Origin: Candidatus Acetatifactor stercoripullorum
GTDB lineage: Bacteria; Bacillota; Clostridia; Lachnospirales; Lachnospiraceae
Reading direction: 5' to 3'
DNA: 64,000 nt
Assembly (NCBI GenBank): GCA_019114005.1
Contig: DXGH01000010.1
Coordinates: forward strand, 6,723-70,722
Numbering within the stretch: position 1 is the first letter of the stretch; every line of letters begins with the position of its first letter. A model generated the notes under the pieces. The model ran no database searches. It was not told the DNA's origin and saw only the letters and a list, made by a program, of their open reading frames with translations. Positions 28,454 to 34,539 of the stretch are shown one piece after another. The position numbers and the translations under genes are program-made.

Positions 28454-29119
28454 TCAGGCGAGAATCTCTCCCTGTGTGGAGATGGTGACCACCTGCCAGG
28501 GAAGAAACTTTCCACTCATTTTCAGAGCTGTGACCGCCGCATGCTCGATGCCGCCGCAGCAAGGCACCTCCATGCGCACGATTGTAAGTGCGCTGATCTC
28601 ATTGCGCTTTATAATTTCCGCAAGCTTTTCTGTGTAATCCACCCCATCCAGCTTGGGACAGCCTATCAGCGTAATTTTCCCCCGGATAAAATCCTGATGA
28701 AAGTCAGCGTAAGCATAAGCCGTACAGTCCGCTGCAATCAGCAGATGGGCTCCCTGAAAATACGGAGCGGTTAAGGGGGCCAGCTTGATCTGTACCGGCC
28801 ACTGGCGAAGCTGGGACCTGCCGGAAGGCTGTTCCTTGTCTGAAAGCTCCTTCTTGCTTGAAAGCTGTCCTTGGCCTGAAAGCTGTCTCTTGCTTTCTTT
28901 TACCGCCGCCTCATCATAAGCTGCAGCCTCACGCTCTACAAAGGTGATGGCTCCCACCGGGCAGGCGGGAAGGCAGTCCCCCAGCCCATCACAGTAATCC
29001 TCCCGCAGAAGCGCCGCCTTTCCATTTATCATGCCGATGGCGCCCTCGTGACAGGCTTGGGCACAGATTCCGCAGCCGTTACACTTTTCCTGATCTATCT
29101 CAATGATTTTCCGTATCAT
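28454..29119 (-). CDS. 4Fe-4S dicluster protein (ferredoxin domain plus Cys-rich C-terminal domain; type often found beside hcp)
   Basis: CNGCGICAQAC, CDGLGDCLPACP, QWPVQIKL, ADCTA, GCPKLD, MEVPCCGG; real start MIRKII at 29119. Confidence 0.85.
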   Translation of the reverse strand: MIRKIIEIDQEKCNGCGICAQACHEGAIGMINGKAALLREDYCDGLGDCLPACPVGAITFVEREAAAYDEAAVKESKRQLSGQGQLSSKKELSDKEQPSGRSQLRQWPVQIKLAPLTAPYFQGAHLLIAADCTAYAYADFHQDFIRGKITLIGCPKLDGVDYTEKLAEIIKRNEISALTIVRMEVPCCGGIEHAAVTALKMSGKFLPWQVVTISTQGEILA

Positions 29120-29156
29120 GCAATTCCTCCATTCAATAGATTTTGCAAGCTTTTTC

Positions 29157-29215
29157 TTGACTTTACAGCAGAAGTATACTATGCTTTTTGCAAAAAGTAT
29201 GTTGTTCAAACAACA
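29157..29215. promoter_or_regulatory. Divergent promoter pair with Crp/Fnr box 1
   Basis: + strand TTGACT-N17-TATGCT (29157-29185); - strand TATACT (29178-29173); box TGTTG-TTCAAA-CAACA at 29200-29215. Confidence 0.8.
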
Positions 29216-29229
29216 AAAACGGAGAAAAA

Positions 29230-29886
29230 ATGAAAAATTCCCTTTTGTCCAATACCGCACTCTTTCGAGGCGTCCACCAAAAAGAAACTGATTCCCTGCT
29301 TTCCTGCCTCCAGGCATATGAAAAAAGCTATGAGAAAAATCAAGTAATCCTTCACGCAGGAGATATGGTGGACTCCCTGGGAATGGTTTTGGAGGGCACT
29401 GTCCTGATAGAAGCCGATGATATCTGGGGAAACAGAAGCATCCTGGACAAGGCTGAATGCGGTCAGATTTTTGCGGAAACCTACGCACTGCTGCCGGGGG
29501 AGCCCCTTATGGTGAATGTTACCGCCGCCTGCTGCTGCCGGATTCTCTTTTTGAATGTCAGAAAGCTTACCCAGACCTGCAGCGCCAGCTGCCCTTTTCA
29601 CCACAAGATGATCGGGAATCTCCTTTCTTTATCCGCCGAAAAAAATCTCAAGCTGTCCCGGCGTATTTTTCACACCTCCTCAAAATCCATACGGGGAAGG
29701 CTTATCTCTTATTTTTCCCAGCAGGTAAGGCAAAACGGAAGCTATCAGTTTACCATCCCCTTTAACCGAAAGCAGCTGGCAGATTATCTGGGAGTTGACC
29801 GCAGTGCGCTCTCCAATGAGCTTTCTAAAATGCAAAAGGAAGGTATTCTCTCCTATGAAAAGAATACCTTCCGCATGATACCCTGA
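29230..29886 (+). CDS. Crp/Fnr family transcriptional regulator (paralog 1)
   Basis: cNMP-like domain, CSASCPFH, HTH IPFNRKQLADYLGVDRSALSNEL. Confidence 0.92.
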   Translation: MKNSLLSNTALFRGVHQKETDSLLSCLQAYEKSYEKNQVILHAGDMVDSLGMVLEGTVLIEADDIWGNRSILDKAECGQIFAETYALLPGEPLMVNVTAACCCRILFLNVRKLTQTCSASCPFHHKMIGNLLSLSAEKNLKLSRRIFHTSSKSIRGRLISYFSQQVRQNGSYQFTIPFNRKQLADYLGVDRSALSNELSKMQKEGILSYEKNTFRMIP

Positions 29887-29894
29887 AAGCCAGC

Positions 29895-30053
29895 TTATGC
29901 TTCCACGAACGCATCCTTACCTAATCCGCAGAGGGGGCAGACCCAGTCGTCCGGGATATCCTCAAAGGCCGTTCCCGGCGCAATTCCTCCATCGGGATCG
30001 CCCACCTCAGGATCATATACCCAGCCGCATGCTTCACATACATATTTCTTCAT
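29895..30053 (-). CDS. Rubredoxin (52 aa; absent from the ORF track)
   Basis: [52 protein letters not shown]; two C-x2-C-G knuckles; RBS AAGGAAGAG. Confidence 0.97.
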
Positions 30054-30141
30054 AGTCTCTTCCTTTCTTCTTTCCTTTTATTGTTTGTACTTATTGTTTC
30101 TATGTGATGAACCGCTGCATGCGGTTCCAAACACCAAAGTT

Positions 30142-33100
30142 TTACAAAGCTCCGCCGTACAGGGCCACCAGCCTCTGCAGATAAGCCATTCGCTCTTTCG
30201 CCTGGTTCTCCGCCTGGGCAAACAGCTCCTGTGCCCGCTCTGGATTCGAACGCTGCAAGGCGTCGTAGCGCACCTCTCCGGACAGGAAATCCTGATAATC
30301 TTCCGTGGGCAGCTTGCTGTCTAAGGTGAATGCGCCGGCCTGTGTTCCCCGATTGCGGGGATCAAACCGGAACAGATGCCAGTATCCGGTCTTTACCGCC
30401 TTTTCCTCTTCCGTCTGGGAACAGGACATTCCCACCTTGATTCCGTGGCTGATACAAGGAGCATAAGCAATAATCAGGGAAGGCCCCTCATAGCTTTCCG
30501 CCTCCAGAAAGGCCTTGATGCACTGGTTGTAATCAGCTCCCATGGCAATCTGCGCCACATACACGTTTCCGTAGCTCATGGCAATGCCGGCCAGGTCCTT
30601 TTTCCGGGTGGGCTTGCCTCCTGCCGCAAACTTTGCAACGGAGCCTGTGGGCGTGGACTTGGAGGACTGGCCCCCGGTGTTGGAATACATTTCTGTGTCA
30701 AACACCAAAATGTTGATATCCTGTCCGCTTGCCAGCACATGGTCCAGACCGCCGAAGCCGATATCATAGGCCCAGCCGTCGCCGCCGAAAATCCACTGGG
30801 ATTTCTTTCCCAGAAAATCCTTTTCCTCCAGAATCTCCAAAATCTCCTTTTGTTGATCCCCGTCAGCCTCTTTTGCCAGACAGGCCTCAAGCTGTATCGT
30901 GGCTTGCCCATTTAAGGCTCCATTCTGGAAGGTATCCGTCCACTGCGCAATGGCCTCCCGCAGAGTGTCGCTGATGTTTTGTGTCTCCAACGCTTCCAGC
31001 TCTTCCCTCAGCCGCTTTCTGATGCTTTTTTGTGCCAGCAGCATACCATAGCCAAACTCTGCCGCATCCTCAAACAAAGAATTGGACCAGGCCGGACCTC
31101 TTCCCTGATCATCCGTGGTATAAGGTGTGGAGGGGGCAGAATTTCCCCATATGGAGGAGCAGCCCGTTGCATTCGCAATATACATCCTGTCCCCAAAGAG
31201 CTGTGTAGCAAGCTTTGCGTAGGGCGTCTCCCCACATCCCGCGCAGGCTCCTGAAAACTCCAGAAGGGGCTTTTTAAACTGGCTGCCCTTAACTGTGGAA
31301 GCCTTAAATTTCTCTAAAACCTCCGGCTTTGCAGGCAGTGCCTTGCAAAAGTCAAACTGCTTCTGCAGCGCTGTCCTCTCTGCCTTTGGCAGTGTGGAAA
31401 CCGCCGTCATGGAGAGAGCCTTGGCGCCCATCTTTCCCGGACACACATTAGCGCAGGAGCCACAGCCCACACAGTCTGCAGGAGACACTGTAACAGCAAA
31501 ATACATTCCCGGCATCCCCATCATGGGAATAACTTTCATGCCATCCGGCGCGGCATCCGCTTCCTCTTTGGTAAGCACCGCAGGCCGGATAACCGCATGG
31601 GGACACACAAAGGCGCAGCGGTTGCACTGAATACAGTTTTCACAATTCCAGGCAGGAATATCCACCGCCGTATTTCGGCGCTCGTGGGCCGATGTGCCGG
31701 AGGGGACGGAACCATCCTGATACTCCAAAAAGGCTGATACCGGAAGCGCATCTCCCTTTTGCGCATTTACCTTCTGCTGAATCTGCTCCACATATCTTAC
31801 CACCTCTGGCCTATCCTTCAGGGTTTCTGTCTTTTGCTCCTCTTCCACGGCATCCGCCCACCGCTCCGGAACCTCCACCTTTACGATATTTTGGGCTCCC
31901 GCATCGATGGCAGCATAATTCATCTGAACCACCTGGTCACCCTTTTTCTGATAGCTTGCCCTGGCGGCGTCCTTCATATACTGCAAGGCGTCTTCCCTGG
32001 GAATGATATCTGTCAGCGCAAAAAAGGCGGACTGCAAAATGGTGTTGATTCTTCCCTTTAAGCCGATTTTCCTGCACAGCCCCACGCCGTCTATAATATA
32101 AAAACGGATATGGTTTCTGGCTATGAACCGCTTTACCGAAGCGGGCAGCCGTTCCTCTAACTGCGCGCTGTCCCAGGTGCAGTTTAACAGGAAAATGCCT
32201 CCCTCCTTCAAATCCTGCACCATGTCGTATCTGCGCAGATAGGACTGGTTGTGGCAGGCCACAAAATCTGCCTTTTCTATCAGGTAGGTAGACTTGATGG
32301 GACTGTCTCCAAACCTTAAATGAGAAACGGTAAGCCCTCCTGATTTCTTGGAGTCATAAGAAAAGTAAGCCTGTACATATTTATCCGTATGATTGCCGAT
32401 AATCTTAATGGAATTTTTGTTGGCTCCCACTGTTCCGTCACTGCCAAGGCCCCAGAATTTCGCGCTGTAAATATCCTTTGGCGCAGTGTGGATCTGTTCC
32501 GTAAGCTCTAAGGACAAATGCGTCACATCATCCAAAATTCCCACGGTAAACCGCTTCTTTTCCCGGTTGTCAAACACCGCCTTGATCTGGCTTGGGGTGG
32601 TATCCTTGCTGCTTAAGCCGTATCTGCCGGAAAAAATCTCAACGCTGTGAAATTTGCTGTCCCGCAAGGCTGCAGCCACATCCAGATAAAGGGGCTCGCC
32701 TATGGCGCCAGGCTCCTTGGTGCGGTCCAACACAGTAATCCTCTTTACAGAATCCGGGATGACTGCAAGCAGATGCTCTGCACTAAAGGGGCGGTATAAA
32801 TGAACCTCCACTACCCCCAGTCTTTCTCCGGAAGCATTCAGATAATCCACTGTCTCCTCGATGGTCTGACACACGCTTCCCATGGCTATAATCACATGCT
32901 CCGCATCCTGGACGCCATAATAATTGAATAATCCGTAATGGGTCCCTATTTTCTCATTGATCTGGTTCATATAAGACTCCACAAGACCCGGCAGCGCATC
33001 GTAAGCCCCATTGCTGGCCTCTCTTGCTTGAAAAAAGATATCCGGATTCTGGGCGGAGCCCATCTGTCTGGCGTGATTGGGGTTTAAGGCGTTCTTGCGA

Positions 33101-33708
33101 AATGCCTTTACAGCCTCCAAATCCATCAGCGCCTTCAAGTCCTCATAGTCCCACGCTGCAATCTTTTGTACCTCGTGGGAGGTGCGGAAGCCGTCAAAAA
33201 AGTGAAGGAAGGGCAGTCTGCCCTTGACCGCCGCCAGATGCACCACAGGTGCCAGATCCATTACCTCCTGCACGGAAGCGCTGGCCAGCATGGCCACCCC
33301 TGTCTGCCTGCAGGCATATACATCGGAATGATCGCCAAAAATGGACAGCGCATGACTTGCTATGGTTCTTGCCGCAACATGAAACACCCCCGGAAGCCGT
33401 TCTCCCGCAATTTTGTATAAATTGGGAATCATGAGCAAAAGTCCCTGAGAGGCTGTGAAGGTAGTGGTCAGGGCTCCCGCTGCCAGCGAGCCGTGGACGG
33501 CTCCCGCTGCGCCTGCCTCAGACTGCATCTCCGTCACCCAAACCTCCTGCCCGAAAATATTTTTTCTCCCCTGATTGGCCCATTCATCCGTCACCTCTGC
33601 CATGGCAGAGGATGGGGTGATGGGATAAATGGCGGCTACATCACTGTAGGCATAGGCCACATGAGCCGCCGCCTGATTGCCGTCCATTGTCATCTTTTTC
33701 CGCACCAT
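30142..33708 (-). CDS. nifJ: Pyruvate:ferredoxin (flavodoxin) oxidoreductase
   Basis: DGNQAAA, YPITPSS, EMQSEAGAAG, CIQCNRC, FSGACAGCGE, GGDGWAYDIG. Confidence 0.97.
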   Translation of the reverse strand: MVRKKMTMDGNQAAAHVAYAYSDVAAIYPITPSSAMAEVTDEWANQGRKNIFGQEVWVTEMQSEAGAAGAVHGSLAAGALTTTFTASQGLLLMIPNLYKIAGERLPGVFHVAARTIASHALSIFGDHSDVYACRQTGVAMLASASVQEVMDLAPVVHLAAVKGRLPFLHFFDGFRTSHEVQKIAAWDYEDLKALMDLEAVKAFRKNALNPNHARQMGSAQNPDIFFQAREASNGAYDALPGLVESYMNQINEKIGTHYGLFNYYGVQDAEHVIIAMGSVCQTIEETVDYLNASGERLGVVEVHLYRPFSAEHLLAVIPDSVKRITVLDRTKEPGAIGEPLYLDVAAALRDSKFHSVEIFSGRYGLSSKDTTPSQIKAVFDNREKKRFTVGILDDVTHLSLELTEQIHTAPKDIYSAKFWGLGSDGTVGANKNSIKIIGNHTDKYVQAYFSYDSKKSGGLTVSHLRFGDSPIKSTYLIEKADFVACHNQSYLRRYDMVQDLKEGGIFLLNCTWDSAQLEERLPASVKRFIARNHIRFYIIDGVGLCRKIGLKGRINTILQSAFFALTDIIPREDALQYMKDAARASYQKKGDQVVQMNYAAIDAGAQNIVKVEVPERWADAVEEEQKTETLKDRPEVVRYVEQIQQKVNAQKGDALPVSAFLEYQDGSVPSGTSAHERRNTAVDIPAWNCENCIQCNRCAFVCPHAVIRPAVLTKEEADAAPDGMKVIPMMGMPGMYFAVTVSPADCVGCGSCANVCPGKMGAKALSMTAVSTLPKAERTALQKQFDFCKALPAKPEVLEKFKASTVKGSQFKKPLLEFSGACAGCGETPYAKLATQLFGDRMYIANATGCSSIWGNSAPSTPYTTDDQGRGPAWSNSLFEDAAEFGYGMLLAQKSIRKRLREELEALETQNISDTLREAIAQWTDTFQNGALNGQATIQLEACLAKEADGDQQKEILEILEEKDFLGKKSQWIFGGDGWAYDIGFGGLDHVLASGQDINILVFDTEMYSNTGGQSSKSTPTGSVAKFAAGGKPTRKKDLAGIAMSYGNVYVAQIAMGADYNQCIKAFLEAESYEGPSLIIAYAPCISHGIKVGMSCSQTEEEKAVKTGYWHLFRFDPRNRGTQAGAFTLDSKLPTEDYQDFLSGEVRYDALQRSNPERAQELFAQAENQAKERMAYLQRLVALYGGAL

Positions 33709-33750
33709 ACTATCACCTCTTTTGAAATAAGCTCATATCTTAACTGGTTC

Positions 33751-33809
33751 TTGCTATTTTAATAGGATTATACTATAATGAAACAAATAATTCTGTTGTA
33801 ATTACAACT
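33751..33809. promoter_or_regulatory. Divergent promoter pair with Crp/Fnr box 2
   Basis: + strand TTGCTA-N17-TATAAT (33751-33779); - strand TATAAT (33772-33767); box TGTTG-TAATTA-CAACT at 33794-33809. Confidence 0.8.
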
Positions 33810-33837
33810 TTTATATGTATTTTAGGAAAAACAATCT

Positions 33838-34539
33838 ATGGAAGCTTACCTTACCTTTTTGAAAAACACCAATATGTTTCTGGGAATCAGCGAAGAAGAA
33901 ATCAGTACAATGCTCAAATGCCTCTCCACCAAAAAGCTACATTTCCAAAAGGGGGAATACATCATCCGCAACGGGGAGGACAACCACTTTGTAGGCATGG
34001 TGCTCTCAGGACATGTGCTGATAGAAAAAGAAGATTACTGGGGAAATAATTCTATTTTTGAGGAAATCGCCCCGGGGATGATTTTTGCGGAAAGCTACGC
34101 CTGTATTTCCCTCCTTCCCCCGGAGCTCAACGTTTTAGCCGGCACAGATGCCGACGTTATGTTTTTTGACTTCCGCAGAATCTTTACGGTATGCTCCTGT
34201 GCCTGCGTTTATCATACAAAGCTGATTCACAACCTCTTAAATGCCATTGCAAGAAAAAATATCAGCCTCACCCAAAAGATAGAACACCTGAGCAACCGCA
34301 CCATCAGAGGGCGGCTTTTGTCCTATCTGTCCGCAGAATCCTTAAAGGCAGGAAGCGCCGCCTTTACCATTCCCTTTAACCGCCAGCAGCTTGCCAATTA
34401 TCTGGCTGTAGACCGGAGCGCGCTCTGCAGCGAGATCAGCAAGCTGCAAAAAGAGGGAATTCTCTCCTGCAGCAAAAATAAATTCCGCTTTTTGCAGCGG
34501 CCTGCGGGAGAGGAACATTTACTGGAGCACCTGGAATAA
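33838..34539 (+). CDS. Crp/Fnr family transcriptional regulator (paralog 2)
   Basis: CSCACVYH, HTH IPFNRQQLANYLAVDRSALCSEI. Confidence 0.92.
   Translation: MEAYLTFLKNTNMFLGISEEEISTMLKCLSTKKLHFQKGEYIIRNGEDNHFVGMVLSGHVLIEKEDYWGNNSIFEEIAPGMIFAESYACISLLPPELNVLAGTDADVMFFDFRRIFTVCSCACVYHTKLIHNLLNAIARKNISLTQKIEHLSNRTIRGRLLSYLSAESLKAGSAAFTIPFNRQQLANYLAVDRSALCSEISKLQKEGILSCSKNKFRFLQRPAGEEHLLEHLE

Follow-up and report, generated by a model that had tools for sequence, protein, structure and literature searches.

HcpR regulators as a rule turn on genes for defence against nitric oxide, chief among them hcp, which encodes the hybrid cluster protein Hcp. The HcpR2 type of Crp/Fnr regulator was predicted by Rodionov et al. 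(2005; PMC1274295, Table S1 profile 5), with the box TGTTG-N6-CAACA in Clostridium thermocellum. There, hcpR and frdX-hcp diverge from a shared intergenic region, in which the site has position −31 relative to hcpR and −101 relative to frdX, and the TGTTG-type motif was tied to a Ser at CRP position 181, beside Arg180 (PMC1274295). In Clostridioides difficile, HcpR has been shown by experiment to be necessary for nitric oxide (NO) induction of frdX and hcp (PMC12915319), and Desulfovibrio HcpR2 has been proposed to hold an iron-sulfur (Fe-S) cluster (PMC4534486, PMC5701242). Here, we describe two regulators of this kind, each with its own box and a divergent redox target, in a 64,000-nucleotide stretch of Candidatus Acetatifactor stercoripullorum (GenBank assembly GCA_019114005.1, contig DXGH01000010.1, positions 6,723 to 70,722, forward strand); the whole stretch is called the window below, and coordinates refer to it. 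Taken as a whole, we consider it fairly probable that both regulators belong to the HcpR2 branch of Crp/Fnr, TGTTG-N6-CAACA type, and that they form twin cassettes in which an NO-type signal leads to class II activation of frdX and of a pyruvate:ferredoxin/flavodoxin oxidoreductase (PFOR)-rubredoxin pair, combined with autoregulation.

Regulator 1 is divergent from frdX, and regulator 2 is divergent from the PFOR gene, with the rubredoxin gene 3' of PFOR. The elements of the locus are as follows.

28454–29119, minus strand: FrdX-like Fe-S protein gene (221 aa), Pfam Fer4 families
29157–29185, plus strand: regulator-1 promoter, TTGACT (29157)-N17-TATGCT (29180–29185), by direct reading and consensus scan
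29178 to 29173, minus strand: predicted frdX −10, TATACT, 1 bp from the regulator-1 −10, back-to-back
29200–29215, no strand: HcpR2 box 1, perfect palindrome TGTTGTTCAAACAACA, read from the sequence and matching profile 5
29230–29886, plus strand: regulator 1, HcpR2-type Crp/Fnr (218 aa), Pfam cNMP_binding and HTH_Crp_2
29895–30053, minus strand: rubredoxin gene (52 aa), Pfam/NCBIfam
30142–33708, minus strand: PFOR gene (1188 aa, full length), TIGR02176, 1773 bits
33751–33779, plus strand: regulator-2 promoter, TTGCTA (33751)-N17-TATAAT (33774–33779), by direct reading and consensus scan, 10/12 matches
33772 to 33767, minus strand: predicted PFOR-rubredoxin −10, TATAAT, a family-wide column conserved in the sister species G199 and at locus L038
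33794–33809, no strand: HcpR2 box 2, TGTTGTAATTACAACT, read from the sequence
33838–34539, plus strand: regulator 2, HcpR2-type Crp/Fnr (233 aa), Pfam PF00027 and PF13545

A first-pass annotation of this DNA had placed boxes, promoters and genes at these positions, and every element was confirmed to the base. Its description of two paralogous Crp/Fnr regulators of the HcpR kind is borne out by their family domains and by an identity of 46% over 214 aa in a pairwise alignment. Both proteins combine a cNMP-binding-type beta-roll with a C-terminal Crp-type helix-turn-helix (HTH; PF00027 and PF13545). Regulator 1 has the recognition helix VDRSALSNE and the motif C117-x3-C121-x2-H124; in regulator 2 these read VDRSALCSE and C119-x3-C123-x2-H126. 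The V-D-R-S-A-L present in both corresponds to Arg180/Ser181, and in the wider family Arg is found in 49/49 sequences and Ser in 44/49. At residue 197, within the recognition helix, regulator 2 has a Cys where 118/122 close relatives have Ser (RSALCSE versus RSALSxE), and just two sequences of the 49-sequence set have Cys at that position.

The genes on the other side of the boxes are redox genes. The FrdX-like protein has a 2x[4Fe-4S] dicluster ferredoxin domain at its N terminus and a Cys-rich domain at its C terminus, and is 56–71% identical to the Fe-S genes that adjoin orthologous regulators and hcp in relatives; because FrdX is named as an HcpR target in the literature, the gene at 28454–29119 can be taken as a canonical one. 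Counted from the regulator-1 ATG, box 1 begins at −31, as does the C. thermocellum site from its hcpR; from frdX the distance is about −97. The linkage to hcp or frdX that marks the HcpR2 branch is thus seen at regulator 1, through frdX. Regulator 2 adjoins neither gene here, and its clade relatives are divergent from hcp or from operons of the RIC type (repair of iron centres, DUF1858-hemerythrin). The shared palindromic box is present at both regulators and kept upstream of 35 orthologs. The PFOR is the genome's second, the other copy (contig C20) being 60% identical, and the rubredoxin is the sole stand-alone rubredoxin found in a profile scan of this genome.

The AlphaFold model of regulator 2 (predicted local distance difference test score, pLDDT, 88) consists of a beta-roll, a long C-helix and an HTH, and its best structural match is Porphyromonas gingivalis HcpR (9DAY; template modeling score, TM, 0.73). 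The closest solved relatives by sequence include the same 9DAY and Thermotoga 1O5L. An identity as FNR, CooA or CRP is ruled out by the box and the ligand residues. FNR proper has three N-terminal Cys and one Cys before the dimerisation helix, and its box is TTGAT-N4-ATCAA; the present regulators have a single conserved N-terminal Cys (C28) and a different box, and NCBIfam FNR-type models score far below their cut-offs. They also differ from the heme-type HcpR with its Met68 pocket, in which alignment with 9DAY shows no equivalent of the Cys/His motif.

The promoter architecture carries much of the regulatory argument. Both boxes begin 14 bp after the regulator's own −10, and the box centre lies 29.5 bp from the first base of the divergent predicted −10 in both spacers, exactly as the first-pass annotation had described; the two spacers have in common just these functional elements. 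The would-be −35 hexamers of frdX and PFOR are CATACT and CAGAAT. Both run into the box on its left half and agree with TTGACA at 2/6 positions, and a blind consensus promoter scan of the spacers detected both regulator promoters and no stand-alone promoter for frdX or PFOR. A class II promoter of the CRP/FNR type has its activator site centred near −41.5 from a mapped start and overlapping a weak −35; the site centre fixed relative to the predicted −10, in these spacers and in 35 family loci, together with a weak −35 (2/6), may point to such a promoter. The predicted −10 hexamers would put the box at −41.5 from the target start. This geometry is compatible with activation of the divergent gene in class II fashion, and the box also lies downstream of the regulator's own predicted promoter. 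A search of the literature for HcpR with class II or 41.5 found nothing relevant.

To place this arrangement in the family, 35 distinct, diverged regulator upstream regions were anchored on the box. They align without any indel and give the consensus cTTGAcTTT.TGa....ATTATA.TAtAAT(14 nt)TGTTGtttTTaCAACA. The −35 TTG is present in 34/35, a plus-strand TAnnnT in 33/35 and a minus-strand TAnnnT, 1 bp away, in 35/35 of the loci. Within the spacer of the regulator promoter, an A, a T and an A are invariant, which makes sense only if they are key positions of a second, opposite −10; the conserved g-T-c immediately to the left of the box can be read as the GAC core of a −35, weak and 17 bp away from the minus-strand hexamer. 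The identical promoter geometry that the first-pass annotation singled out is therefore present in both spacers and is not peculiar to the pair: base for base, it is the standard cassette of the subfamily. A class II contact would call for just such a rigid distance of 29.5 bp. As the −10 hexamers are back-to-back, a polymerase bound to one promoter should keep a second polymerase off the other, and negative autoregulation may follow simply from this mutual exclusion.

Chance occurrence of the boxes was rejected by comparison with shuffled sequences and by a genome scan with a position weight matrix (PWM) built from orthologous sites. The TGTTG-N6-CAAC pattern occurs at two loci in the window, against 0.26 expected per shuffled sequence, and at eight loci in the 3.07-Mb genome; the six besides the two boxes have G+C-rich centres. 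The boxes score 24.1 and 19.9 bits in the PWM scan, the next genome match (14.9 bits) lies inside a coding frame, and no further intergenic site exceeds 13 bits. Because there are just two strong boxes in the genome, the predicted regulon consists of the two divergons. The small regulon that had been anticipated thus agrees with a genome-wide scan that gave just two strong matches in 3.07 Mb, and the choice of PFOR-rubredoxin rather than hcp as target stands as well, in a genome without hcp whose sole predicted targets are PFOR-rubredoxin and frdX. The housekeeping PFOR on contig C20 has no box within 500 bp upstream, and neither the one flavodiiron protein nor any of the three rubrerythrins of the genome was picked up by the box scan. 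Two weak intergenic matches (contigs C55 and C26) look unrelated. At about position 2158 of C26, the weak palindrome AGTTGCAGATACAACT (12.3 bits) lies immediately next to the −10 of a TTGACA-N17-TACAAT promoter that precedes an ABC-transporter-like gene; most probably it serves some other regulator as operator or matches by chance.

The targets of related regulators connect both paralogs to hcp. In 40 relatives, orthologous regulators that are 36–47% identical to regulator 2 and up to 61% identical to regulator 1 have the box about 12–75 bp upstream of their start and are mostly divergent from frdX, frdX-hcp or hcp. The operons faced across a box by orthologs in relatives comprise frdX, frdX-hcp, hcp, cupin-frdX and cupin-hcp-DUF1858-hemerythrin. 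The nearest database relatives of regulator 2 (56–67% identical), among them proteins source-named Lacrimispora and 'Clostridium sp.', face hcp, cupin-hcp-DUF1858-hemerythrin or a DUF1858-hemerythrin operon and carry TGTTGTAATTACAACA or close variants. A scan of species genomes for the exact box gave loci at which it adjoined hcp, frdX, rubredoxin-hcp or RIC-type operons, with Atopobium, Oscillospiraceae, Ruminococcus, Sphaerochaeta and Lachnospiraceae among the record titles. No PFOR adjoined the exact box elsewhere among the 119 loci listed, many of which are chance 15-mers.

Two further observations concern the range of the box. In other Clostridia (L115, L127, L154), the exact box TGTTGTAATTACAAC stands ahead of rubredoxin-hcp operons, and rubredoxin is therefore recurrent in the regulon even without PFOR. 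Outside Bacillota, box and regulator are found beside hcp or frdX at L070 and L077 (both titled Atopobium), L179 and L140 (Sphaerochaeta), which suggests that regulator and promoter cassette have spread horizontally as one unit.

The entire twin cassette is present in one other species of the genus, the sister species G199, in which both boxes and the geometry are kept. Identities there are 66% for frdX, 64% for regulator 1, 96% for rubredoxin, 83% for PFOR and 80% for regulator 2, and the spacers have diverged outside the −35, −10 and box. Box 1 of G199 is TGTTGTTAAAACAACA; box 2 is identical in G199 and L038. One metagenome contig has regulator 2 (79%) divergent from PFOR (87%) with an identical box, so that the arrangement of regulator 2 facing PFOR is known from 2/269 species genomes of the genus and one metagenome contig. 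The nearest PFORs elsewhere in the genus are 65–69% identical and have no box; one has a rubredoxin gene nearby. At L192 (G118:C192), a rubredoxin gene (80% identical) lies about 550 bp upstream of a PFOR gene (65% identical), with no box, and the linkage of PFOR and rubredoxin therefore recurs independently of HcpR. In the literature searched, no paper was found that joins HcpR with PFOR and rubredoxin.

These features can be joined in a single mechanism. Each regulator would be transcribed from a strong, constitutive-looking sigma-70 promoter, and an NO-type, possibly broader redox, signal would act on a cofactor held by Cys28, Cys119, Cys123 and His126. The signalled dimer would bind the box, centred at about −41.5 from the divergent start and overlapping the poor −35, and recruit RNA polymerase as a class II activator of the divergent gene. 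Relative to the regulator transcript, the box would also span about +9 to +24, with the promoters on the same DNA, and binding would then damp the regulator's own transcription. Regulator 1 would drive frdX, and regulator 2 would drive the second PFOR and the sole free rubredoxin. Read most economically, this would probably send electrons, under stress, from pyruvate via rubredoxin to rubredoxin-dependent detoxifying enzymes (flavodiiron protein, rubrerythrins) in a genome without Hcp. Several PFORs are reported to reduce rubredoxins in vitro, sometimes better than ferredoxin (reviewed in PMC13768988). Signal, cofactor, activation, autorepression and electron route are each steps that we infer.

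Several points weigh against this explanation. A profile search found no match to Prismane (PF03063) in the 99.99%-complete genome, and co-occurrence with hcp, part of the original definition of HcpR2, is accordingly not seen here. The gene for the flavodiiron protein has no box, the PWM scan giving no site of at least 12 bits on its contig (C73). Activation and the −41.5 position depend on predicted hexamers, and the assignment of each paralog to its adjacent box is a prediction. The characterised HcpRs of C. difficile, P. gingivalis and Desulfovibrio have other boxes and other cofactor ligands, so that the assignment of NO as the signal is by family context only. As to hcp itself, G199 has the gene divergent from a third HcpR paralog in a 4.4-kb segment (L069 and L201, G199:C6). 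On both sides, this segment is flanked by sequence syntenic with contig C40 of the present genome, which has a different segment of about 12 kb at C40:16453–28535; the site is a variable spot, and this explains why the two genomes differ in hcp.

How the two regulators relate to one another bears on whether they act separately. In a tree of 49 sequences, they fall in separate clades (Shimodaira-Hasegawa-like approximate likelihood ratio test, SH-aLRT, 100 and 98), and each clade has hcp-linked members. A recent tandem duplication of one cassette is ruled out by the 46% identity, the separate clades and spacers that share only functional elements; the 'duplicated unit' of the first-pass annotation, in the sense of a recent local duplication, has to be given up, and by this phylogeny regulators 1 and 2 are old paralogs. 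The inner half-site bases are clade-specific, TGTTGTT[A/C/T] versus TGTTGTAA, and the central hexamers are of the TTCAAA type versus TAATTA. Cross-talk is nevertheless a tentative possibility: both paralogs may bind both boxes, as homo- or heterodimers, and form one four-gene regulon with redundant sensors, as the same outer half-sites (TGTTG/CAAC) and the near-identical recognition helices (RSALSNE versus RSALCSE) would allow. Maintained specificity is suggested instead by the fact that the paralogs are kept apart at 46% identity and that their inner half-site bases are conserved in the sister species.

The putative sensor site is the same in both paralogs. Across 122 homologs of at least 48% identity, Cys28, Cys119, Cys123 and His126 (numbered as in regulator 2) vary little or not at all, and C-x3-C-x2-H is retained in 46/49 sequences of the broader family; the motif noted in the first pass is real and family-wide. 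In the model, the loop that leads into the long dimerisation helix contains C119 and C123, H126 is in the first turn of that helix, and C28 ends an N-terminal helix. From these residues, the cofactor could be either an Fe-S cluster with Cys3-His ligation or a heme with thiolate/His ligation. A more specific reading, which we offer as no better than tentative, is that the TGTTG-box HcpR2 subfamily senses through Fe-S or another metal and not through heme, and that its portable promoter module has, in this lineage, captured PFOR-rubredoxin so that pyruvate would drive an Hcp-independent detoxification of NO or O2. The ligands in this reading would be the one N-terminal Cys and the Cys-x3-Cys-x2-His at the start of the dimerisation helix, an FNR-like topology with another ligand set; the module would be rigid, self-contained and placeable before any gene, with the same box in Bacillota, Atopobium and Sphaerochaeta.

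The identity of C28, C119, C123 and H126 in the two paralogs also argues against the idea that at least one of them, most plausibly regulator 2, senses O2, peroxide or thiol redox rather than NO, and so does the linkage of the nearest relatives of both to hcp and RIC-type operons, which are nitrosative-stress genes. By this route, which we think unlikely, a Cys119-Cys123 disulfide or oxidation of a cluster could be the trigger, and PFOR-rubredoxin could be an oxidative-stress module. The absence of hcp from the genome would suit such a module, as would the part that rubredoxin, rubrerythrin and flavodiiron proteins also play in the detoxification of O2 and reactive oxygen species; E. coli YdbK, as outlined in the review cited above, is a precedent for a stress-regulated PFOR. 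The unusual recognition-helix Cys of regulator 2 (Ser in 118/122 relatives) points the same way, and the clade-specific central hexamers would permit separate control.

Least probable, and in our judgment very doubtful, is a repressor model in which cofactor-loaded regulators on the box block both promoters until NO or oxidant damage to the cofactor de-represses the targets: the published model of Desulfovibrio desulfuricans HcpR2 is indeed of an Fe-S-containing repressor, three invariant Cys and one His could hold an NO-labile cluster, and the box shares bases with the target −35 and is downstream of the predicted transcription start site of the regulator, but the targets have no usable −35 (2/6) and go undetected as stand-alone promoters, as is typical of activator-dependent class II promoters, a distance fixed at 29.5 bp in 35 loci is expected for protein-polymerase contact rather than simple occlusion, and C. 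difficile HcpR regulates positively.

Two hairpins were found 3' of the PFOR and rubredoxin genes.

29838–29872, minus strand: strong terminator-like hairpin, 16-bp stem and T-run, 3' of the rubredoxin gene and within the 3' end of regulator 1
30109–30127, minus strand: hairpin GAACCGC-ATGCA-GCGGTTC, 7-bp stem without T-run, in the 88-nt gap between PFOR and rubredoxin

Co-transcription of PFOR and rubredoxin is likely because the 88-nt gap has just the 7-bp hairpin without T-run, which may serve in RNA processing or stability and not in termination. The hairpin from 29872 to 29838 is the likely end of the transcript. Since it falls within the final 50 nt of the regulator-1 reading frame, which is convergent, the two transcripts would share some sequence at the 3' end. 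Beyond frdX, ahead of the next gene, there is a GC hairpin whose T-tail is weak.

The locus offers a natural case of an HcpR regulon without its name-giving target, with the same sensor-promoter module aimed at central carbon and electron metabolism, through the second PFOR, and at rubredoxin. If our explanation is right, it would suggest a way in which certain anaerobes of the gut or rumen that lack Hcp may handle nitrosative or oxidative stress, and it would give a physiological context to electron transfer from PFOR to rubredoxin, so far seen mainly in vitro. The fixed spacing of −35, two −10 hexamers and box is a precise model of coupled activation and autoregulation, and the invariant Cys3-His set would mark a cofactor site unlike the heme site solved in P. 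gingivalis HcpR.

P. gingivalis HcpR (9DAY, PMC12750200) is of the same family, an NO-responsive activator and the best fold match to the regulator-2 model. It differs in binding heme via Met68 (possibly with His149) and no Cys ligands, in its identity of about 20–21% to regulator 2, in its box, TGTCGC-N4-GCGACA, and in having hcp as its sole target. The HcpR1/HcpR2 pairs of Desulfovibrio (D. gigas and D. desulfuricans; PMC4534486, PMC5701242) resemble the present pair in that each genome has two paralogs with separate targets, for which a split into heme-based and Fe-S-based NO sensing has been proposed. They belong to the HcpR1 branch, however, with TGTGA-N6-TCACA boxes, their paralogs are not adjacent, and their targets are hcp, cupin and wrbA-type genes rather than PFOR. 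The HcpR of C. difficile is likewise a Crp/Fnr regulator adjoining frdX, with NO-dependent positive control, and knock-down of frdX sensitises the cells to NO; its box is GGAT-N-T-N2-A-N-ATCC (profile 4), and its targets include hcp and neither PFOR nor rubredoxin. SoxRS-controlled YdbK of E. coli (cited in PMC13768988) is similar in being a second pyruvate oxidoreductase, under stress control, from which protective systems receive low-potential electrons. The resemblance is by analogy only; YdbK has regulators of an unrelated family (SoxR/SoxS), a flavodoxin partner and an oxidative signal.

The closest counterpart is the computationally predicted hcpR and frdX-hcp divergon of C. thermocellum, which has the box consensus nTGTTGnAnnTnCAACAn, the box at −31 from the ATG, the divergent layout and Arg/Ser at 180/181. 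In contrast, frdX is not followed by hcp here, there is a second paralog, again with this box, opposite PFOR-rubredoxin, and the C. thermocellum work (PMC1274295) described neither the promoter geometry nor the Cys/His motif. The first-pass suggestion that the regulon may be undescribed is not sustained, since box, HcpR2 branch and the divergon of hcpR and frdX were all predicted in 2005 for C. thermocellum. The regulon is of that predicted type, and the novelties found here leave its category unchanged; what is new is regulator 2 facing a second PFOR and rubredoxin, the setting in a genome without hcp, the explicit promoter cassette and the conserved Cys3-His site.

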